NCBI GenBank assembly: GCA_048939765.1
Contig: JBHLPF010000006.1
Coordinates: 1-64,000, forward strand
Length of the DNA stretch: 64,000 nt
DNA from: Promethearchaeota archaeon
GTDB taxonomy: Archaea; Asgardarchaeota; Thorarchaeia; Thorarchaeales; Thorarchaeaceae
Direction of reading: 5' to 3'
A program made the position numbers and the translations under genes. The stretch's first letter is position 1, and each line of letters begins with the position of its first letter. Positions 7,645-59,545 of this stretch are shown piece after piece. The notes beneath the pieces are model-generated. The model ran no database searches. It was given only the letters and a program-made list of their open reading frames with translations, and was not told where the DNA came from.

Positions 7645-8478
7645 ATGTCAAGCTTAATATTGGACCATCCTCCCTCAAGCTCGGTGTTCTCAGCTATGGG
7701 TGAAGAATGCGAAGCCAAGATACTAGGGTCTCCAGAAGCTCAGGTCGTACAGACCGATCTCCATCTTTCAATGAAATCCCCTCTTCTGGTCTGCTGCTTT
7801 CCATCCGCAGGAGTCATTGGGACAATTGCGGCTAACACGATGATTGAGCAGTTCAAAATGGTAGAGGTTGCCCACGTCAGGTCCAGATACATGCCATCAG
7901 CCGCAGTCTTTCTCGATGGCAGACTAAGGCATCCTTTTCGGATTTATGCCAGTGAGGAGAAGAATCTCATTGTTGTCACTGCGGAACTCCCTGTGGCCGA
8001 GGAAGGAATGTATGTGGTGAGCTCAGCCCTTTTGGACTGGGCAACAACAATCGGAGTCAAAGAAACGGTGATCTTGGACGGCATTCCAGTGCAGGGTATT
8101 CCAACTAAAAGAAAGGTCCTCTTTGCTGCTGAAGAGGAGAAGATTGCTGAGCTTGAGGAAGATGAAGAGATGGAGATACTCCAGAAAGGCATCATAACCG
8201 GAATAGCTGGCTCCATCCTTTCAGAAACCCTGTGCCGTGATTTGGTTGGTTTTGCGTTGCTGACTCCTGCAATACCCATGATGCCAGACCCGGAAGGAGC
8301 AGTCCAGGTTCTGAAAGCCCTGAACAGACTCTACGACGTGGGAGTGGAAGTTTCAGAACTAGAGGATAGTGCTGAGCAGATACGCAAGAAGATGGAAGAG
8401 GTTGCCCAGCAGGTAGATGGCATCAGAAGACAACAGCCAGGCCCTTCAAGGGGCGGGTACGAAAGAATGTATGCATAA
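7645..8478 (+). CDS. PAC2-family proteasome assembly chaperone
   Basis: FPSAGVIGTIAA, GIITGIAGSIL, PDPEGA motifs and a C-terminal MYA HbYX-like tail; real start may be the MGEE Met. Confidence 0.85.
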   Translation: MSSLILDHPPSSSVFSAMGEECEAKILGSPEAQVVQTDLHLSMKSPLLVCCFPSAGVIGTIAANTMIEQFKMVEVAHVRSRYMPSAAVFLDGRLRHPFRIYASEEKNLIVVTAELPVAEEGMYVVSSALLDWATTIGVKETVILDGIPVQGIPTKRKVLFAAEEEKIAELEEDEEMEILQKGIITGIAGSILSETLCRDLVGFALLTPAIPMMPDPEGAVQVLKALNRLYDVGVEVSELEDSAEQIRKKMEEVAQQVDGIRRQQPGPSRGGYERMYA

Positions 8479-47101: not shown

Positions 47102-49063
47102 ATGAGTCAACACCGGGCATCTATGATACAGCCAAAGGGGATACTAGCTTTGACGATTGACAGGACGACAGATAATCCATGGAACCACGTGATGAGTGTA
47201 GTCGCGAGAGTTCTAGCTGACTCTGCGTCTGTCGATCTTGTGACGGCTCATGAGAACCTTGAGATTCCGCCAGATGCCAAGCTGGGAGACATTGCAACCA
47301 CCTTAGCTTTTCGTCTGGCAAAGGAAAGAAAGGACAATCCGGCAAAGATTGCTGCAGATATCTCAAAGAATCTTGAGAGCGCTATCAAGAAGGAGCCGTT
47401 AATTGATAGAATAGATAACAAGGGCCCATACATCAATCTCTTTCTGTCTAGAAGAGAATTGGCTGATTTTGTCATCAGAGCCGTGGCCCAATCAAATGAG
47501 AACTATGGTAAGTCTAACGAATTCCAAGGCAATCGAGCTCTCATGGAGTACCCCGCGGTAAATCCCTCTAAGCCATGGCACATCGGTCATACCAGAAATG
47601 CAGTACTTGGAGACACTTTAGGAAATGTCCTTGAGGCAGCGGGATATGACGTGATCAGAACAGACTACATCAATAATCTCGGATTGCAGATTGCTCAGCT
47701 CGTTTGGAAGCTTATGAAGGACAAACCTTCCCCTGGAGATGAGAAATATGATCACTTTCTAGGGCATCTATATGTTGAGGTGCACGAGGATTTTGAGAGG
47801 GACAAGAAAGTAGAAAGTGAGATTCGGGCTGTTGCTCGTGACCTCGAGAGCTTGGAGAGCGAAGCTGCCAGAGTCAGCGAAGAGATGGTCACCGAATGCG
47901 TGAGAGCGCAGTGTCAGACTGCATATCGACTAGGAATCTTCCATGATTACCAGATATGGGAGAGTGCGATTGCTCACAGTGGATTACTGGACAAGGCCCG
48001 AAAGATGATGCTAGAAACTGATAACATCTTCATCCCTGAAAGCGGTGAGAAGGCAGGATGTATTGTAGCTGACCTCAGGACAATTGAAGATTTCAAAGAC
48101 ATGAAGGACCCATTTAAGGTCCTCTTCAGATCAGATGGAACCAGGACCTATACTGGCGCAGATGTAGCCACGCAGATGTGGAAATTTGGGATAATAGAAG
48201 ACCCATTCTTGTACAAGGAGTTTGAGCGTCAGCCAAATGGTGAAATCGTGTATAGAACTGCAGTTGATGGATCCGAAAGAGACCTTGGCACTGTAGATCT
48301 CGTCTTCAACATAATTGGATCAGAACAATCACAACCGCAACGGCTGGTCTACACGGTGCTTGGACTCTTAGGGTATAATGAACAGAGTGGCAACTCACAC
48401 CATATCGCGTATGAGTTTGTTGGACTTGAGGATGAAGACTTCTCAGGCAGGGAGGGCACGTGGATAGGCTATTCATGCGACGTGGTACTTGACAAGGCTG
48501 AGGCTCTAGCCAGAAATGAGGTTGAAAAACGAAATCCCGAGGAGTCTGATGAGTTCAAGAATGATATCGCGGCTAAGGTAGGAATCGGTGCTGTTCGATA
48601 CTTGCTGTTGAAATCATCACCAGACAGAAAAATCATCTTTAGATGGGAAGATGCTTTGGACTTCAACGGAGATGCAGCACCATATCTGCAGTACTCTATT
48701 GCGAGAGCGCAGAGAATACTAGAGAAGGCAGATGAAGCAGATATTTCAAATGCAAATCTGAAGCTATTGGTAGAGGAGGCGGAGTTTGCACTCATCAAAG
48801 CAGTTTCACGCTTCCCAAATGTGATTCTTGAAGTAGTGAGGAGTCTGAAGAAAGAAACTTGGGGAACAGGATTCAGTTCCAACAGGATTGCTGCATACTG
48901 CTATGAGCTGGCAACTCTCTTTAGCAGGTTCTATGATTCCTGCCCAGTGCTTAAGGCAGAGCCAGATTTCAAAAGAGCCAGGCTCGAGCTGGTGAAGGCA
49001 TTCAAGACTACGATGGTGAACTGCCTGAGGATTCTTGGAATTCCTGTGGTCGAACGAATGTAG
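47102..49063 (+). CDS. argS: Arginyl-tRNA synthetase
   Basis: NPSKPWHIGH.RN, RSDGT, FSGREG, GDAAPYLQY, FSRFYDSCPVL. Confidence 0.96.
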   Translation: MSQHRASMIQPKGILALTIDRTTDNPWNHVMSVVARVLADSASVDLVTAHENLEIPPDAKLGDIATTLAFRLAKERKDNPAKIAADISKNLESAIKKEPLIDRIDNKGPYINLFLSRRELADFVIRAVAQSNENYGKSNEFQGNRALMEYPAVNPSKPWHIGHTRNAVLGDTLGNVLEAAGYDVIRTDYINNLGLQIAQLVWKLMKDKPSPGDEKYDHFLGHLYVEVHEDFERDKKVESEIRAVARDLESLESEAARVSEEMVTECVRAQCQTAYRLGIFHDYQIWESAIAHSGLLDKARKMMLETDNIFIPESGEKAGCIVADLRTIEDFKDMKDPFKVLFRSDGTRTYTGADVATQMWKFGIIEDPFLYKEFERQPNGEIVYRTAVDGSERDLGTVDLVFNIIGSEQSQPQRLVYTVLGLLGYNEQSGNSHHIAYEFVGLEDEDFSGREGTWIGYSCDVVLDKAEALARNEVEKRNPEESDEFKNDIAAKVGIGAVRYLLLKSSPDRKIIFRWEDALDFNGDAAPYLQYSIARAQRILEKADEADISNANLKLLVEEAEFALIKAVSRFPNVILEVVRSLKKETWGTGFSSNRIAAYCYELATLFSRFYDSCPVLKAEPDFKRARLELVKAFKTTMVNCLRILGIPVVERM

Positions 49064-50413
49064 TCAGCCAGAGGTCACCTGCGCAGAGCTTATGACGATT
49101 GATGGACTTATAATCGAGAAAGCAACTCGAGTATCTGCAGCTACCATTTCTATACGTTTCAACAGATCGCGCATGTTGATCCCAATGAGCGTATTCTGCA
49201 CAGGATGCTGAATCTCTCCATTCTCGAAATATGATCCTTCCATAATCATTGCACTGAGGTCACCGGTTGTCATGTTTGGCCGGTCTCCTGTGAAGCGGCA
49301 TAGAACTCCCTTGCCAACTTCTTTGATGAGATCATCCAATGTGCCCTTTCCAGGAGTAACTACGAAGTTTGAAGAGGATACCGAGGGCACTCCTGCATAT
49401 CCAGGCCGGCTGGCATTTCCAGTGCTATCGACACCATCCTTGTTGGCGGTGTAAGAGTTGTGCAATAGACTCTTCAGGACCCCACCATCAAGAATCTCGG
49501 TGCGTTGAGATGGATGGCCTTCGGCATCAAAAGACCGAGAAGAAACACCCGATGTCATAAGACCATCATCGATAATCCGAAGCTGCGGAGTCGATACCTC
49601 TTCGCCTAATGCATCTGCGATATAGGAGCGGCCATATTGGACTTCCTCGGCATTCACAGCTCCAGCAAATCCTCCCCCTAGGATGGTCCCAACGGCAAAT
49701 GGAGCAAGAATCACTGGCATCTCACCTCCCTCAACAGCCTTGGCCCCCAGATTGCTCAATGCATTCTCTGCAGATCTCGTTCCTATCCACTCAGGGTCAA
49801 TCTCCTTGAGTCTGCGAGAGAGCTGGACCTCATAGCTGGATGTCTGATCGCCATCTTCTTTGATTGTGGGCTCTGTATACATCCATACAGACGTCGATTC
49901 GCCAAACCCCTTGATTCCGAGCGAATTGACAATGACAGTAGTGCCAGTCGATGAACTCATTTTAGCTGCAACTGCAACATCCATGCCCTCCAGTCTTGAG
50001 CGTGCAGCGTCAACTCCACGAATGATCATTTCAGCGACTTGCTCAGAATCCAGCTCTACAATTTCGGAATCGTAGAGACCTTTAACGTCAGGGTAAATCC
50101 CATCGAACGATGGAAGGCTCACAAAGTCCGGGTCAGGAACAGAGGCCTTGGCGAGTCTAACAGACAGCTCAGCAGCCTCCAGAAGGTCGGCTTCTAGAAC
50201 AGTTGTGGCATATGCGAACCCCACTCTCTTGCCGACAACTGACCGAATTCCGCAGCCTGTATCACGATTCTCTGAGGCACTTTTGACTGAATTGTTCTCT
50301 ACATCGATGGAGAAGGTACGGGATGATGACGTGTAAACCTCCACCTGGCCGGCACCAAAAGACTCAGCCTTCTTAGCTGCTTTTTCCGCGATGTCTAGAA
50401 GATTCTCCATCAC
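49064..50413 (-). CDS. pmbA: PmbA/TldE family protein
   Basis: GCGIR, FDAEG, STGNA, TTGDLS; no HExxxH. Confidence 0.9.
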   Translation of the reverse strand: MMENLLDIAEKAAKKAESFGAGQVEVYTSSSRTFSIDVENNSVKSASENRDTGCGIRSVVGKRVGFAYATTVLEADLLEAAELSVRLAKASVPDPDFVSLPSFDGIYPDVKGLYDSEIVELDSEQVAEMIIRGVDAARSRLEGMDVAVAAKMSSSTGTTVIVNSLGIKGFGESTSVWMYTEPTIKEDGDQTSSYEVQLSRRLKEIDPEWIGTRSAENALSNLGAKAVEGGEMPVILAPFAVGTILGGGFAGAVNAEEVQYGRSYIADALGEEVSTPQLRIIDDGLMTSGVSSRSFDAEGHPSQRTEILDGGVLKSLLHNSYTANKDGVDSTGNASRPGYAGVPSVSSSNFVVTPGKGTLDDLIKEVGKGVLCRFTGDRPNMTTGDLSAMIMEGSYFENGEIQHPVQNTLIGINMRDLLKRIEMVAADTRVAFSIISPSIVISSAQVTSG

Positions 50414-50414
50414 T

Positions 50415-51806
50415 CTACATGCCTCCTACAGGAATATTGCGAATCCTGGCATGTGGGCCTCCACTCATGTCAGGTACCATCTGTCCATTCTTCCCACAAG
50501 TCCCTGCATCCATGAGAAAGTCATTGCCAACAGCATCTATTTGGGCTAGTACGTCAAGAATCTGACCAGCAAGAGAAACGTCGCGGACCATTTGGCCAAG
50601 CTCACCATTCTCAATGAGATAGCCATGACTGGCTTGGAACATGAACTGTCCTTTTGCGGGCTCTGTGTACCCATAGTTGAAGCTGCAGAGCATTACCCCT
50701 TCTTTTGTGTCGGAAATCATCTCGTCGACGTCCCAATCACCTGGTTCCATGATGGTGTTGGACATCCTGGCCAATGGTGCGTGCATGAAGGACTGCGCTC
50801 TGGCAGAGCCATTTGGTTGCATATCCAAACGAACTGCAGTTTCAAGGGTGTGTAGAAGCTCGGTGAGTACACCATCTTTTACAAGAATTCGCTTCTTCGT
50901 CTTTGTTCCCTCCCAGTCATATTCAAATGAGCCCCGCTCTCCGGGCATAGTAGGGTCGTCGCTTAGATTAAGGTGATCAGGGCCAACACACTCTCCAACC
51001 TTGTCCTCGAGAACTGTCGTATGAGCTGGCCAGTTATCTGCTTCGCAGGCATGACCAAATGCCTCATGAACCATTACGCCATTTAGGACTGGGTCCATGA
51101 TAACATCGTAGGTTCCTCCCTTTGCAGCTACAGATGATAGCAAATCAATTGCCATCTTTGCAGATTCCTCACCGATGGTCTGGGGCCGCTCTAACTCCAT
51201 CATCTCAAAACCACCCCTGACACCGTAGGACTTGAACGCCCTTTGCCTGTTAGCACCATCTTTAGCGGTTGAAACAGAAATGACTCTAGGAAGAGCATTT
51301 TGCATACTCACACTTGTTCCAAAGGAATTGGTGACATAGAGATCAGTCCAGAGATCACCGTATATAGAGCGGGTATTGACAATCCTCTTGTCATAAGCAC
51401 GAGACTGCTCATCGATTCTCTTGATATACTCAATCTTGTCCTCAACCGAAATATCCCTGAAGGGCTTTTTCAGCTTGACTTCAACCTTGTCATTGAAGGT
51501 AGGCCCATCCATCTCAAACTTCTCATTGACCTTTGTCTTGGTGGCCATGGCTAGCCTAGCAACTGATTCACCAGTTTCACGCATGCCCTTAGCAGTAAGG
51601 TCAGTTGTCTGAGCAAAGGCCCAAGCGCCATCAATGAAAGCTCGAATTCCAGCCCCCTTCAGTCGTGAGGCAACAGACCTCTTTGTCACACCATCCGTCA
51701 TCTCAATGATGGTGGTGACAGTGTTTTCTATTCGCACATCAGCGAATTTTGCTCTAGCATTGATAGCCGCCTCAATTGCAGCCCGAGCTATGTCTTCCAT
51801 AAGCAT
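50415..51806 (-). CDS. tldD: TldD family metalloprotease
   Basis: HEAFGHACEAD, YDWEG, RMSNT, CGKNGQ. Confidence 0.93.
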   Translation of the reverse strand: MLMEDIARAAIEAAINARAKFADVRIENTVTTIIEMTDGVTKRSVASRLKGAGIRAFIDGAWAFAQTTDLTAKGMRETGESVARLAMATKTKVNEKFEMDGPTFNDKVEVKLKKPFRDISVEDKIEYIKRIDEQSRAYDKRIVNTRSIYGDLWTDLYVTNSFGTSVSMQNALPRVISVSTAKDGANRQRAFKSYGVRGGFEMMELERPQTIGEESAKMAIDLLSSVAAKGGTYDVIMDPVLNGVMVHEAFGHACEADNWPAHTTVLEDKVGECVGPDHLNLSDDPTMPGERGSFEYDWEGTKTKKRILVKDGVLTELLHTLETAVRLDMQPNGSARAQSFMHAPLARMSNTIMEPGDWDVDEMISDTKEGVMLCSFNYGYTEPAKGQFMFQASHGYLIENGELGQMVRDVSLAGQILDVLAQIDAVGNDFLMDAGTCGKNGQMVPDMSGGPHARIRNIPVGGM

Positions 51807-53531: not shown

Positions 53532-54155
53532 CTAAATACCCAGTTCACGCTCCAAATCCTTAATGTCTTTCTCAAGGGTTTCTGACTCAGATGCAGGCCT
53601 GGCTGCTACTGATGCTGCATCAGCCAATCCAACTTCCACATCGATTTCTTGCATGGCAGCAGCCACATCATCTGAACTAACTTCCATGCTCGCATCAAGC
53701 GCCTCTGCAGATATTGCACTCTCAATCTCGAACTCATCTAATCGACGAGTGATCTCGTCAATGTTCTCAACAAGCCGGCGGGTATCACTTGTATCGCCAA
53801 GCATTCCAAGGATCTTTGCAACCTGCTCGAGTGCGCGACCTGTCCTTGCTGATGTCTGTGCACGATTGAGGTGAGTAAGGATTTTGAGAATCTGAAGCCT
53901 CGCCTTGTCTGTGGAGAGTGCGTATCGTCTGAAACGTATCATCTCAGTTGCATAGGTCGTGAAGGCATCCATTTGTCCAGCCTGGCGAGCTTTGATAGCT
54001 CGAGCTCTTGTGTCACGCTCTTCTTTCTCCAACTTGCTTCTCTCACGAGCAAGTTGTTTCGTCAGAATTCTGAGCTGACTGGAAACCTCTCCAATGTCTG
54101 GTTTTTTCCGACCCCATCTGAATGCCTTTCTGAGTGAATCCAAAAGTCTCACCAC
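53532..54155 (-). CDS. ESCRT-III Snf7-family protein (Vps2/24/46-like)
   Basis: Basic N-terminal helical hairpin (LARERSKLEKEE..AIKARQAG..YATEMIRFRR), acidic C-half, terminal helix TLEKDIKDLERELGI. Confidence 0.85.
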   Translation of the reverse strand: MVRLLDSLRKAFRWGRKKPDIGEVSSQLRILTKQLARERSKLEKEERDTRARAIKARQAGQMDAFTTYATEMIRFRRYALSTDKARLQILKILTHLNRAQTSARTGRALEQVAKILGMLGDTSDTRRLVENIDEITRRLDEFEIESAISAEALDASMEVSSDDVAAAMQEIDVEVGLADAASVAARPASESETLEKDIKDLERELGI

Positions 54156-54315: not shown

Positions 54316-55539
54316 ATGTCTGATAGATTAGACCAAGGCCTGAAAAATCTACTCGACAGGGCCATAGAACTTGACCAGAGAGGAATGAAGAAGGAAGCTG
54401 CTCAATACTACCTGAAGGCTAGCAAAATCCTGATCAAACTGTCAAATGCAGCATCTTTGCCCTCAGTTCAGAAACACTACCTTGACAGGGCACAAGAGTG
54501 TGTTGACAGAGTCCGCTATATCTCTGGTATAAAGAAGAAGGCGAGAGGACCTCCAGAGGGGTTGACGACTCCACCAGTGTTTTCTTCTGCTGAAACGGAA
54601 CCAACAGCCGAGAAGTCTACGGAAGCGATGGCATCTGAAGCAGAGGTGGATGAGGACACACGAAGACTGCAGGAGATGATAGCTGACACAATCATCACTG
54701 AGAAACCTAATGTCAAAATGAGTGATGTTGCGGGCCTAAAGGATGCCAAGCAGGCAATTAATGATGCAATTATCGCACCGATGAAACATCCAGAGCTCTT
54801 CAAGGGGAAGTCTCGGCAGCCATGGAGGGGAATATTGTTCTATGGTCCCGCAGGATGCGGAAAGACGTTGATAGCAAAAGCGGTGGCATCGGAGGTGAAT
54901 GCCACTTTCTTCAATGTTTCAGCAGGCAACATTGTAAGCAAGTGGCTTGGAGAGTCTGAGAAACTGGTCATGAACCTCTTCACTTTGGCCAGACGAAGTC
55001 AGCCTGCCATAGTCTTCATGGATGAGCTGGATTCCGTCGGGGTCTCTAGGTCTGGTGATGACGTCGGGGGAGAAAGAAGACTAAAGACTCAGCTTCTAAC
55101 AGAACTACAGGGACTAGCCAGCGACCTTGAAGATAGGGTCACAGTGATTGGTGCAACAAACCTGCCATGGGAGTTGGACTTCGCTCTTCGGTCGAGGTTT
55201 GAGAAGAAAATCCATGTGCCGCTGCCAGACAAGCCAGCTAGAAAGAGAATCTTCGAGATTCACATGGAAGAGATAAATGTCGCTCCTGAAGTGGACTTCG
55301 AGGAACTTGCGGATCTCAGTGAGGGATATAGTGGACGGGATATTAGCGTCGTCTGTAGAGAAGCAGCCATGGAACCGATAAGGGACCTTCAGCGCATTGG
55401 AAGAATGGACGAGGAAGAAGAGATTCTTGATATTCGACCAGTATCCAGAGAAGATCTTCTGCAGGCGATCGAGAACATAAAGCCGGCAACTTCTCCTGAG
55501 GATGTAAAGAGGTATATCGATTGGGCGGAGGGTTCCTAG
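54316..55539 (+). CDS. vps4: Vps4 AAA+ ATPase with N-terminal MIT domain
   Basis: RAIELDQRG..AAQYY MIT domain; PWRGILFYGPAGCGKT, SKWLGESEKLV, FMDELD, GATNLPWELD. Confidence 0.95.
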   Translation: MSDRLDQGLKNLLDRAIELDQRGMKKEAAQYYLKASKILIKLSNAASLPSVQKHYLDRAQECVDRVRYISGIKKKARGPPEGLTTPPVFSSAETEPTAEKSTEAMASEAEVDEDTRRLQEMIADTIITEKPNVKMSDVAGLKDAKQAINDAIIAPMKHPELFKGKSRQPWRGILFYGPAGCGKTLIAKAVASEVNATFFNVSAGNIVSKWLGESEKLVMNLFTLARRSQPAIVFMDELDSVGVSRSGDDVGGERRLKTQLLTELQGLASDLEDRVTVIGATNLPWELDFALRSRFEKKIHVPLPDKPARKRIFEIHMEEINVAPEVDFEELADLSEGYSGRDISVVCREAAMEPIRDLQRIGRMDEEEEILDIRPVSREDLLQAIENIKPATSPEDVKRYIDWAEGS

Positions 55540-55542
55540 GGA

Positions 55543-56277
55543 GTGGGTGTCAGAGAGAGACGTAGAGAAAAAGAGAAAGAAAAGACTACGTCAGAAACAG
55601 CAACATCAGAACCCACCGTAGATGAGGCCATTCCAGCAGAAGAGATAGAAGAAGTGAAGGAAACCTACAGACCGGAAGCTGTTATGACGCAAGCGGCAAC
55701 AGAAACTGCTGTCGAAGAGAAGAGGGATTCAGTAGCTCAAGCTGAGGAAGTTCTAGTCAAACCGGATGAAGTCACCATCATGCCTCCATGGGGAGACCTT
55801 GGACAAACAGAGTGGATGTATGGCATACCTCCTCGAGAAGAAGACAGAGAGATGTGGGCTGAAGAGTGGTCTGATTTCGTCCTGAGATGGATGGAAGCAC
55901 ATGATGTCCATGTCCTTTCTGTGACTGCTTTCATCAAGGAACCCCCCTTTAATGAAATCACGAATAAAATCGATTCATTCAAGCTAATTGGCAATGTGCT
56001 CGTAGAGAAGGAAATTGCGGAGTGGCTGGATAGGAACCAAAGACAATTGCGAGTCTATTGGAGATTCCTTGAGGAATGGGCGGACATTATATATGAATGG
56101 GCCTTGAAGTCAGGGAAGGTCAGACTAGATGTGAAATCAATAGTCATTCAGGAAGAGGAATATAGCTTCGCTAGACTGCCAGAGAAGGATCTTCATCAGA
56201 TACTCCTGATAATGGTGGAGAAAGGACTTGCAGAGTGGGTGGACAAGAAAAGAGGGGCAATCAAGATCATCGTTTAA
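55543..56277 (+). CDS. vps25: ESCRT-II Vps25-like protein with acidic N-terminal extension
   Basis: WAEEWSDFVLRW, AEW..VYWR.LEEWADIIYEWA, L..MVEKGLAE; PP motifs at the N-terminus. Confidence 0.88.
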   Translation: MGVRERRREKEKEKTTSETATSEPTVDEAIPAEEIEEVKETYRPEAVMTQAATETAVEEKRDSVAQAEEVLVKPDEVTIMPPWGDLGQTEWMYGIPPREEDREMWAEEWSDFVLRWMEAHDVHVLSVTAFIKEPPFNEITNKIDSFKLIGNVLVEKEIAEWLDRNQRQLRVYWRFLEEWADIIYEWALKSGKVRLDVKSIVIQEEEYSFARLPEKDLHQILLIMVEKGLAEWVDKKRGAIKIIV

Positions 56278-56278
56278 C

Positions 56279-57052
56279 TTAACGTCGTGAAATAGATCCA
56301 CCATCGTCATGTTCCCTGGCACGCAGGCCTGGGAAGTAGTATCTACCCCCAGTTGAGAATCGAATGTCTGCCACTGCCATTCCGGCATCTGCTAGACTGG
56401 AGAGAACTTGCCTTGCATGATCCTCGGACCATTTCATGAGCATCATTACTTCCTCAACAGAAACATAGCCCTTAGATGCAGCGAGGTTTACAACATCCGC
56501 TTGATCCCTTCTGAGCTCAAGTGGGCGAAGCTCAACTACTTTTACACCACCGCGTAGCGTCCGTATGCCTGGTATTAGTCCATGCTCAGCAACCCGATTG
56601 ACAGCCTCGATAACATCACTGTAGCTTATTGCCTTAAGCTCAGGCATACGCTTCACAACTTCAACGATTAGCTCAGCGAGTCCCATGAGTCCCTTGGAGG
56701 CATGTACTGTTGCCACATCAAGAATTGCAAGACCAATGTGGTCGTAATATTCATCCATGGTCATTCCGTCTCCACGGAATCGGTTCTCACGACGGGAGAG
56801 GTCAAGCAGCATAATGGCATCAGGGAATCGTTCTGCAACATGTTCAGTCTGAATGAAGGTGCCAAAATCTAGGCCAATGCGCCTCAGATCTGCAATGTTA
56901 GCCTTAACCTCACTGGCTAGTGCTTCAGACTCCCTCTGATATGACCTGATGTCGACAATTCCCATGTCGAACATCTTCTTCAGCTGGTCAAGGGTGGCAA
57001 TTGAGGCGAAGAGTTCGGATTGGAGACGTTCTTGCATCAAAGAAACCTTCAC
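56279..57052 (-). CDS. Vps28-N-like domain fused to ESCRT-II Vps22/36 tandem winged-helix domain
   Basis: C-terminal DEYYDHIG..GLMGLAEL..ISYSDVIEAV..PLELRRDQ..GYVS..W..ARQVL..G..YYFP; N-terminal ELFASIATLDQLKKMFDMGIVD..Y. Confidence 0.8.
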   Translation of the reverse strand: MKVSLMQERLQSELFASIATLDQLKKMFDMGIVDIRSYQRESEALASEVKANIADLRRIGLDFGTFIQTEHVAERFPDAIMLLDLSRRENRFRGDGMTMDEYYDHIGLAILDVATVHASKGLMGLAELIVEVVKRMPELKAISYSDVIEAVNRVAEHGLIPGIRTLRGGVKVVELRPLELRRDQADVVNLAASKGYVSVEEVMMLMKWSEDHARQVLSSLADAGMAVADIRFSTGGRYYFPGLRAREHDDGGSISRR

Positions 57053-58186: not shown

Positions 58187-59545
58187 TCAAGGAGTTATCC
58201 GGTCGCGGTCTCGTGGAAGAAGTATAGCCTCACGGATATTTTCTATTCCAAGCAGCTGCATTGTGAGCCGTTCTACTCCAAGACCCAACCCTCCATGTGG
58301 TGGTGCACCATATTTGAAGGGATCAAGATAGAAAGCAAAGGCATCTGGATCAAATCCCTTCGCCTTGAATCGCTCAACCAACAAATCATGGATGTGTATA
58401 CGTTGACTTCCTGTTGTTATCTCCATGCCTTTGTACATGAGGTCAAAACCCTCAGTCATCCCCTCGTCTGTCATACTAGGCATAGTATAAGCAGGTTTCA
58501 ACTCCAAGGGGTAATGAGTAATGAAAACCATGTCAGTCCCGAATTTCTCAGGGAATATTTCCCCAAGTAGCCGTTCAGCTTCTGGATCGATGTCATCAGT
58601 GACTGCTAGTTCTTTTCCTTCGCTGTTGAGTAGATCAATGGCTTCAGCATATTTGATTCTCTTGAAGGGTACTTTTGGCACAACTAGCTCGATTCCGAGA
58701 AGTTCAAGTTCATTTGCCGCGGCTTCTGATGTCTTCTTGAATGAATGATTCAGCATTCGTTCCTCCATCTTCATGACGTCGTCCACATCGGTTATCCATG
58801 CCATCTCGAAGTCGAATGAGGTATACTCATTGACATGTCGTCTTGTATTGTGTTTCTCAGCTCGAAATACAGGAGCAATCTCGAAGACTCTGCCGAAGCC
58901 AGCCAAGAGCATCAGCTGCTTATAGAATTGTGGGCTCTGAGCCAGGTATGCCTTCTTATCGAAATATTTGACCTCGAATAGGTTTGCTCCACCTTCTGTG
59001 GCTTCAGCAACTATTTTCGGAGTGTGGATTTCCACAAATCCATTTGACTCTAGGTACTCCCGTGCGAATCGAACAAGTGAGTGTTGAACCCGGAAAATCG
59101 CATTAATTGAGGGTTTCCTAAGGTCCAGGACTCTATGATTGAGGCGTGTGTCTAGATCGATATCCACTTTTCCCTCTACAACATCAATTGGAAGACGCTG
59201 GGCAGTATTGATGATACGTATCTTGGTTGGAATGATCTCAGCACCAGAAGCGACTTGCTTGGCAGCCACAACCTTGCCTGTCACAGCCACAGCGTACTCT
59301 GGCTTCAGTTGTCCAGAGGCCTCAAAGACTTCCTTAGAAACCTTAGCCTGTGGAATTGTCACCTGACACTGACCCTGTTCATCTCTGAGAACCAAGAACT
59401 TTATCTTCCCCTTATCACGCAGAATATGGACCCAGCCCATAATGACGACTTCAGTATCTACTATCTCCGCAGTAATCTCAGTAGTGAAGTGAGTACGGAT
59501 TTCTTCACCTATAGGCTCGATACCTGCATCGCTGTAGAAGTCCAT
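58187..59545 (-). CDS. aspS: Aspartyl-tRNA synthetase (archaeal type, probably non-discriminating)
   Basis: GWVH..RD, TRLNHRVLDLR, LAQSPQ, FRAE, GAPPHGG.G.G.ER. Confidence 0.96.
   Translation of the reverse strand: MDFYSDAGIEPIGEEIRTHFTTEITAEIVDTEVVIMGWVHILRDKGKIKFLVLRDEQGQCQVTIPQAKVSKEVFEASGQLKPEYAVAVTGKVVAAKQVASGAEIIPTKIRIINTAQRLPIDVVEGKVDIDLDTRLNHRVLDLRKPSINAIFRVQHSLVRFAREYLESNGFVEIHTPKIVAEATEGGANLFEVKYFDKKAYLAQSPQFYKQLMLLAGFGRVFEIAPVFRAEKHNTRRHVNEYTSFDFEMAWITDVDDVMKMEERMLNHSFKKTSEAAANELELLGIELVVPKVPFKRIKYAEAIDLLNSEGKELAVTDDIDPEAERLLGEIFPEKFGTDMVFITHYPLELKPAYTMPSMTDEGMTEGFDLMYKGMEITTGSQRIHIHDLLVERFKAKGFDPDAFAFYLDPFKYGAPPHGGLGLGVERLTMQLLGIENIREAILLPRDRDRITP

Follow-up and report, generated by a model that had tools for sequence, protein, structure and literature searches.

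The 64,000-nucleotide window analysed here (positions 1 to 64,000 of the forward strand of contig JBHLPF010000006.1, GenBank assembly GCA_048939765.1) belongs to a Promethearchaeota archaeon of the family Thorarchaeaceae, known from a metagenome-assembled genome of 108 contigs that is 88.5% complete. [quoted passage not shown] With a probability of roughly 0.85, the product of this gene is a two-domain ESCRT-I/ESCRT-II chimera, in which the N-terminal domain of Vps28 (Vps28-N) is joined to the winged-helix core of Vps22. The open reading frame (ORF) starts with a GTG, whereas the ATG at 57037 corresponds to residue 6 and the equivalent residue is the start in most homologues; the true start is likely this ATG, which would give a protein of 252 amino acids. 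The 135 homologues found in databases are nearly throughout about 245–260 amino acids long, and nearly all of those with a source name carry the label Thorarchaeota. The features of the gene are as follows.

56279..57052, minus strand: whole ORF, 257 amino acids from the GTG at 57052, stop codon included
56783..57037, minus strand: Vps28 N-terminal (ESCRT-I headpiece) domain, residues ~6–90, from profiles and the AlphaFold2 (AF2) fold
56762..56794, minus strand: flexible junction or linker, residues ~87–97, from low predicted local distance difference test (pLDDT) values and a variable alignment
56321..56761, minus strand: Vps22/EAP30 tandem winged-helix core, residues ~98–244, from PF04157, SNF8 and 2zme_A
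56282..56320, minus strand: disordered C-terminal tail, residues 245–257, with pLDDT below 50 at residues 244–257 and a variable alignment

The relationship of the N-terminal domain to Vps28 is borne out by profile comparisons run in both directions. A hidden Markov model (HMM) of Vps28-N from non-thorarchaeial Asgard archaea was searched against the 25,476 six-frame ORFs of the own genome, and the target gene was its sole significant match, scoring 55.6 bits (E 5.5e-15) over residues 9–87, with an alignment spanning HMM positions 14–92 of 95. In the reverse direction, all the Asgard Vps28 N-termini tested scored 37–66 bits with an HMM of the thorarchaeial N-terminus (87 positions), aligning over positions 4–84. 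The joint alignment of thorarchaeial and Vps28 N-domains is 87 residues long, its sole gap is a one-column insertion in two Vps28 rows, and the two groups have in common the motif ELYAxIATLDxL...G..D...Y.RQ..AL...F...E.I.E.FP.A...L. Additionally, the profile designated A3 gives 106 bits on the target's N-domain, and a profile built from thorarchaeial sequences only, when compared with the PDB, places the yeast Vps28 chains 2f6m_B, 2f66_B, 2p22_B and 2caz_B among its top five matches (E 0.007–0.015), with human VPS28 further down the list. The family model PF03997 is less sensitive. A Pfam scan of the whole protein down to E 1 returns EAP30 alone, and the VPS28 match surfaces solely when the N-terminus (residues 1–96) is scanned separately, weakly (E 0.11–0.14) and in register, with residues 12–66 aligned to positions 2–58. 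Nevertheless, PF03997 matches 12 of the 14 thorarchaeial N-termini (best E 5e-5), and the homologue in a sister-family genome (G112) exceeds its cut-off. At the level of sequence profiles, the Vps28 pattern of the N-terminus is thus confirmed as real and far beyond chance. The initial annotation had noted a match to this pattern and recommended its comparison with a Vps28 profile; the match proved correct, although profiles were needed to recover what the single-sequence Pfam match shows weakly.

The predicted fold agrees with the profiles. When modelled alone by AF2, the N-domain reaches a pLDDT of 87.7 and forms a helical hairpin (helices at 2–29 and 35–58) followed by three short helices. 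The model was compared exhaustively with 48,161 PDB representatives, and its best match was human VPS28 6vme_E (Z 12.1, root-mean-square deviation 1.9 Å over 80 residues), of which residues 34–114 superpose on model residues 1–82 with an identity of about 20%; yeast Vps28 2caz_E came second (Z 9.4), and the Foldseek ranking agrees with the exhaustive comparison. The superposition on ESCRT-I that had been proposed for the fusion bears it out with both the yeast and the human protein. In the full-length AlphaFold model (mean pLDDT 78.7), residues 1–86 match VPS28 (6vme_U) with Z 12.3. The pLDDT falls below 50, indicating disorder, at linker residues 87–94, and this together with a predicted template modelling score of 0.40 means that the model places both domains independently of each other. 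The linker is also the most variable stretch of the thorarchaeial alignment; homology to Vps28 stops at about residue 89, and that to Vps22 begins at about residue 94–98.

The C-terminal two thirds of the protein are unambiguously Vps22/EAP30, and nearer to Vps22 than to Vps36. PF04157 matches residues 82–229 with 51.4 bits (cut-off 26.8), residues 94–243 align with human SNF8 residues 88–239 (E 1.6e-16), and Vps36 gives E 0.2 at best. Model residues 98–244 superpose on human Vps22 2zme_A residues 92–240 with Z 13.1 and 31% identity. Neither the N-terminal GLUE/PH domain of Vps36 nor a zinc finger, such as the NZF fingers of the yeast protein, was found by Pfam in the target, and the N-terminal model is all-helical. 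The claim that Vps28-N is joined to a Vps22 region is hence confirmed by both profiles and predicted fold.

The fusion as such has already been published. Makarova et al. 2024 (mBio, PMC10936438) describe Asgard Vps22 (cog.002769) as fused to a steadiness box, and Table S3 of that paper assigns residues 1–70 of the Thorarchaeota Vps22 KXH75178.1 to PF03997, the VPS28 N-terminal domain, with a probability of 99. The target resembles this protein, labelled Vps22#, in the order of its domains, with a Vps28-type steadiness box ahead of the EAP30 tandem winged helix, and in its ESCRT neighbourhood, and the published HHpred result agrees with the profiles and fold reported above. The likeness to KXH75178.1, a putative orthologue of the target, is by published description; homologue P0065, which is 72% identical to the target, falls in a cluster at 90% identity that holds sequences of Thorarchaeota SMTZ1-45 and AB_25. 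With eukaryotic Vps28 (6VME, 2CAZ, 2F6M, 2P22), the N-domain shares both fold and motif register, but the target lacks the ESCRT-II-contacting C-terminal four-helix bundle and carries a covalent link to ESCRT-II instead. Compared with eukaryotic Vps22/SNF8/EAP30 (2ZME, 3CUQ, 1U5T), the winged-helix core is 30–31% identical to human SNF8 and the gene adjoins that for Vps25, but the N-terminal helical domain that pairs with Vps36 (SNF8 ~13–77) is missing. The canonical Asgard vps28-vps22 pair encodes two proteins, a Vps28 with its C-terminal domain (CTD) and a Vps22 with its helical domain; by homology, the two thorarchaeial domains correspond to these two proteins one to one, and the 5' to 3' order is the same.

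The remainder of the ESCRT cluster consists of four genes.

55543..56277, plus strand: Vps25 (ESCRT-II), PF05871 with 59.8 bits over residues 92–192
54316..55539, plus strand: Vps4 AAA ATPase with MIT domain, from Pfam AAA, AAA_lid_3, Vps4_C and MIT
53532..54155, minus strand: ESCRT-III (Snf7 family) subunit, PF03357 with 42.4 bits
51960..53528, plus strand: 522-amino-acid zinc-ribbon/coiled-coil/PH-like protein with a C-terminal helical region, from weak Pfam matches

The gene for Vps25 is convergent with the target gene, the two stop codons lying 1 nucleotide apart. At its N-terminus, Vps25 is extended by about 90 amino acids (55543–55830, plus strand) that are acidic and of low complexity, and within which no Pfam match was found. 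Directly upstream of the cluster lies a tandem TldD/PmbA metallopeptidase pair (49064–51806, minus strand), and the region is flanked by genes for ArgRS (47102–49063) and AspRS (58187–59545).

This neighbourhood suggests how the chimera might work. The winged-helix core would bind Vps25, and hence ESCRT-III and Vps4, as eukaryotic ESCRT-II does, while the tethered Vps28-N would offer an ESCRT-I headpiece surface to the helical-hairpin, or steadiness-box, end of an upstream adaptor. That the N-domain would bind steadiness-box hairpins of the Vps23/Vps37 type is suggested by the conserved helix-1 motif. The adaptor would most likely be the neighbouring 522-amino-acid protein, which has two weak Pfam matches, DZR with E 0.0016 and bPH_3 with E 0.02. 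In eukaryotes, ESCRT-I and ESCRT-II are bridged non-covalently through the binding of the Vps28-CTD to Vps36; in the chimera, a covalent connection would couple the recognition of cargo and membrane to ESCRT-II, replacing that bridge. By its architecture, which matches a type described by Makarova et al. 2024, the 522-amino-acid protein is a candidate Znr_PH_CC_SB partner, resembling ESCRT-I. Hatano et al. 2022 found by yeast two-hybrid that a free steadiness-box protein of Loki archaea binds Vps22, and reported that the Thor lineage is devoid of ubiquitin; another study reports that it is devoid of UEV-Vps23 as well. In the own genome, Vps23_core (PF09454) gave no match.

The main rival on mechanism accepts the fusion and holds that Vps28-N serves mainly to homodimerise Vps22, taking the place of the lost Vps36-pairing helical domain. 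Thorarchaeial Vps22 does interact with itself in yeast two-hybrid (Hatano et al. 2022), so that the N-domain might mediate homodimerisation instead of binding an adaptor; moreover, the canonical pairing domain is missing from it, steadiness-box hairpins pack together in the ESCRT-I headpiece, and neither Pfam nor a phmmer search of the PDB confirmed a steadiness-box partner in the 522-amino-acid neighbour, for which the assignment of this box comes from the literature. However, Heimdall and Loki Vps22, which have the canonical helical domain, interact with themselves too (Hatano et al.), and Vps28-N is therefore not needed for self-interaction. The strong conservation of the helix-1 motif held in common with Vps28 speaks for a heterotypic partner that has been retained, and a candidate steadiness-box adaptor is encoded in the same cluster. 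Homodimerisation as the chief role is accordingly regarded as improbable, although it stands well ahead of the alternatives that follow.

A different objection is that the N-terminus is a generic steadiness box or coiled-coil hairpin, of the kind seen in Vps23, Vps37 and CdvA, and that its likeness to Vps28 is convergent or general. Helical hairpins readily superpose, and dozens of unrelated chains give Z scores of 6–8 with the model, the Vps23 hairpin and CdvA reaching Z 7.0 and the top unrelated chain Z 7.8. In addition, one thorarchaeial member matches Vps23_core weakly, and Makarova et al. use the generic label "SB". On the other hand, the Vps28 homology runs through all of about 80 residues at 37–66 bits, including the post-hairpin helices with their FP.A motif. 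VPS28 chains top all others in the fold comparison, the best with 80 residues aligned, whereas the Vps23 hairpin covers just 56, and the HHpred result of Makarova et al. gives PF03997 a probability of 99 against 85 for CdvA/SB. A generic helix, which the initial annotation had named as an outcome that would overturn its claim, is very unlikely given that the whole Vps28 N-domain is aligned and superposed.

Even less credible is the view that the first 90 residues are the normal Vps22 helical domain, diverged in Thorarchaeia, with no fusion at all. It draws on the near-equal total lengths (257 amino acids against 258 for human Vps22) and on the N-terminal helical region of about 90 amino acids that other Asgard Vps22 likewise possess. 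That region was characterised from 39 extracted non-thorarchaeial Asgard Vps22 proteins of about 240–265 amino acids, 22 of which were used to build an N-terminal profile. The profile matches human SNF8 residues 13–77 (E 1e-7) and also yeast Vps22, which means that non-thorarchaeial Asgard Vps22 keep the canonical helical domain; their N-terminal consensus reads MGLxEIEK...FExKYG...PEY...ELG. Yet the same profile is unrelated to the thorarchaeial N-terminus (hhalign probability 0.5%), and the Vps22 N-termini of the non-thorarchaeial Asgard genomes that supplied the Vps28 sequences score at most 5.5 bits with the thorarchaeial N-domain HMM. Furthermore, positions 1–64 of PF04157, its helical-domain part, find no match in the target, and the fold search assigns residues 1–86 to VPS28, not Vps22. 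These comparisons support a domain replacement, in which Vps28-N would stand in for the Vps22 helical domain, and not a diverged Vps22. Alignment of the N-terminus to normal Vps22 helices was the second outcome that the initial annotation had set against itself, and it was not observed. The covalent link that it proposed holds, but the part displaced is the Vps22 helical domain and not, as it had supposed, the Vps36 N-terminal region.

The distribution of the fusion is narrow. The Vps22 core is present in 269 of 301 Asgard genomes. Of 151 Asgard genomes, 101 have a PF03997 match over the cut-off, but the 26 genomes from the Thor family have none; weak thorarchaeial matches to it land either on the N-terminus of Vps22 or on a protein about 411–450 amino acids long. 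In the single sister-family genome, the cut-off is passed solely inside the fused Vps22. The Thor order was represented by 42 genomes, namely 41 that are 90–99% complete and the own genome. One strong Vps28-N profile match (89–112 bits), always in the Vps22 frame, was found in each of 41 of these, the exception (G087) having a weak partial match alone, and no second copy scoring above 22.5 bits was detected in any of the 42. The search for a separate vps28 gene that had been suggested likewise yielded no canonical stand-alone gene in the own genome or in the 42 genomes of the order. The fusion was published for Asgard Vps22 in general, but in the genomes searched it occurs in the Thor order alone; the generalisation that Asgard Vps22 carries a steadiness box thus seems to apply to Thorarchaeia only among the genomes sampled. 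What the present results add to the published account is a Thor-specific domain replacement, with the SNF8-type helical domain kept in other Asgards and no canonical Vps28 in Thor. That the chimera is an artefact of assembly or gene calling which joined adjacent genes has practically no chance, for although the own genome is a fragmented metagenome assembly and other lineages have vps28 and vps22 side by side, the frame is uninterrupted in 41 of 42 independent genomes of the order and in the 135 database proteins, and a read-through of two intact genes would keep the CTD of Vps28 and the helical domain of Vps22, both of which are missing.

Several other proteins were encountered in the same searches. 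A PF03997 match on contig C69 of the own genome was rejected as spurious, being a low-complexity coiled coil with internal stop codons. Elsewhere, family f5 comprises frames of about 465–495 amino acids with Vps28 at the C-terminal end, an architecture that resembles a UEV-Vps23-Vps28 fusion reportedly published for Heimdall archaea. Family f13 comprises Vps28 frames of about 300 amino acids with an N-terminal extension, and the proteins of family f9 (about 790–800 amino acids) match the CTD part alone (profile positions 87–182).

Gene order in other Asgard archaea offers a route to the fusion. Non-thorarchaeial loci were fetched around Vps28 matches, and vps22 was found in 28 of 30 so fetched, the other two lying at contig ends. 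At all 36 non-thorarchaeial loci holding both genes, the two share a strand and vps28 comes upstream, with a gap of less than 400 bp in 34 of them and a median of 18.5 bp. Because vps28 sits directly upstream of vps22 in other Asgards, one in-frame deletion across the adjacent pair would be a simple origin; it would take out the linker and CTD of Vps28, the spacer, and the helical domain of Vps22. The fusion junction falls exactly at both domain boundaries.

The fate of the Vps28 CTD is less clear-cut. Its four-helix bundle is absent from the target, in which the Vps22 winged-helix core follows residue 90, and an HMM of the Asgard Vps28 CTD found nothing significant in the own genome (best E 0.3). 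A 411-amino-acid protein is encoded on contig C21 of the own genome (29064–30296, minus strand) and is single-copy in all 25 Thor genomes searched. A profile of its CTD-like region (residues ~110–191) matches the Vps28 CTD 2j9w_A with E 0.005, a BAR-like domain follows (PF03114, E 5e-5), and PF03997 positions 52–185 align to the protein with a sub-threshold 20–22 bits. Its N-terminal 230 residues gave no significant match to full-length Asgard Vps28 (hhalign probability 0.5%). These matches are weak, and they suggest that a Vps28-CTD-like domain may persist on this separate thorarchaeial BAR-domain protein. The protein fits the thorarchaeial Vps28/Vps5-BAR fusion of Eme et al. 2023 (PMC10307638), and Makarova et al. 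2024 label the same type of Thor protein "BAR-SB". It would be a second Thor protein bearing a piece of Vps28, but with the complementary content: the target has the N-domain and winged helices, whereas the BAR protein has the CTD-like part and the BAR domain. The earlier statement that the Vps28-CTD is replaced consequently holds for the target itself, from which the domain is absent, and falls short in that a weak CTD-like domain is found elsewhere.

Taken together, these observations allow a broader reading, which we hold to be slightly better than an even bet. Thorarchaeial Vps28 would have been dismantled, its headpiece passing to Vps22 by deletion and its CTD-like part remaining only on the BAR protein; the result would be a covalent, ubiquitin-independent ESCRT-I/ESCRT-II machine, the published steadiness-box statement would apply to Thor only, and the fusion would act as a Rosetta stone for a hand-off between the two complexes that predates eukaryotes. 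A number of points weigh against the account of the chimera, its origin and its mechanism given above. The single-sequence PF03997 score of the target (12.7 bits) is under the cut-off of 24.5. The partner of the N-domain is a putative one: single-sequence searches of the C-terminus of the 522-amino-acid neighbour (Pfam, and phmmer against the PDB) detected no steadiness box, Vps23 or CdvA, and the yeast two-hybrid contact of Thor Vps22 with itself may point to another role. Duplication followed by domain shuffling is a possible alternative to a deletion. Additionally, with a CTD-like domain on the BAR protein, a non-covalent ESCRT bridge may still exist.

The initial inference of a Rosetta-stone fusion is nevertheless supported, subject to two corrections, namely that the domain replaced is the Vps22 helical domain and that a CTD-like domain occurs elsewhere. 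The covalent link between an ESCRT-I headpiece and ESCRT-II provides independent evidence, of the Rosetta-stone type, that these subcomplexes were already cooperating in Asgard archaea. The target and its putative steadiness-box adaptor would make a compact two-gene system for in vitro reconstitution of the archaeal hand-off from ESCRT-I to ESCRT-II. Moreover, the refinements described here bear on the reconstruction of the ESCRT architecture in the ancestor of eukaryotes.

Two further loci of the own genome are possible relatives of ESCRT components. No Vps36 partner was identified in this genome, and the search for a separate EAP30-like gene returned one other match, a sub-threshold one, in a protein of at least 703 amino acids on contig C8 (minus strand), the N-terminus of which may extend further. 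The PF04157 match lies at about 7857–8405 and scores 23.5–25.8 bits, slightly under the cut-off. The protein combines a long coiled coil with a domain of the CarboxypepD_reg/Ig-like type and, at the C-terminus, an EAP30-like tandem winged helix, and it may be a second, giant ESCRT-II-like paralogue. Frames of about 810–850 amino acids in the Thor-order genomes G112 (its contig C21) and G287 (its contig C23) match positions ~89–244 of the Vps22 core profile. On contig C38 of the own genome, a 117-amino-acid helical ORF (minus strand) weakly matches the Vps28-N profile over its hairpin (E 0.05–0.07). Immediately upstream of it, on the same strand, is a gene for a 304-amino-acid protein with a small-GTPase P-loop, DxxG and NKxD motifs and an extra N-terminal domain. 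The 117-amino-acid product is possibly a free steadiness-box-like protein.

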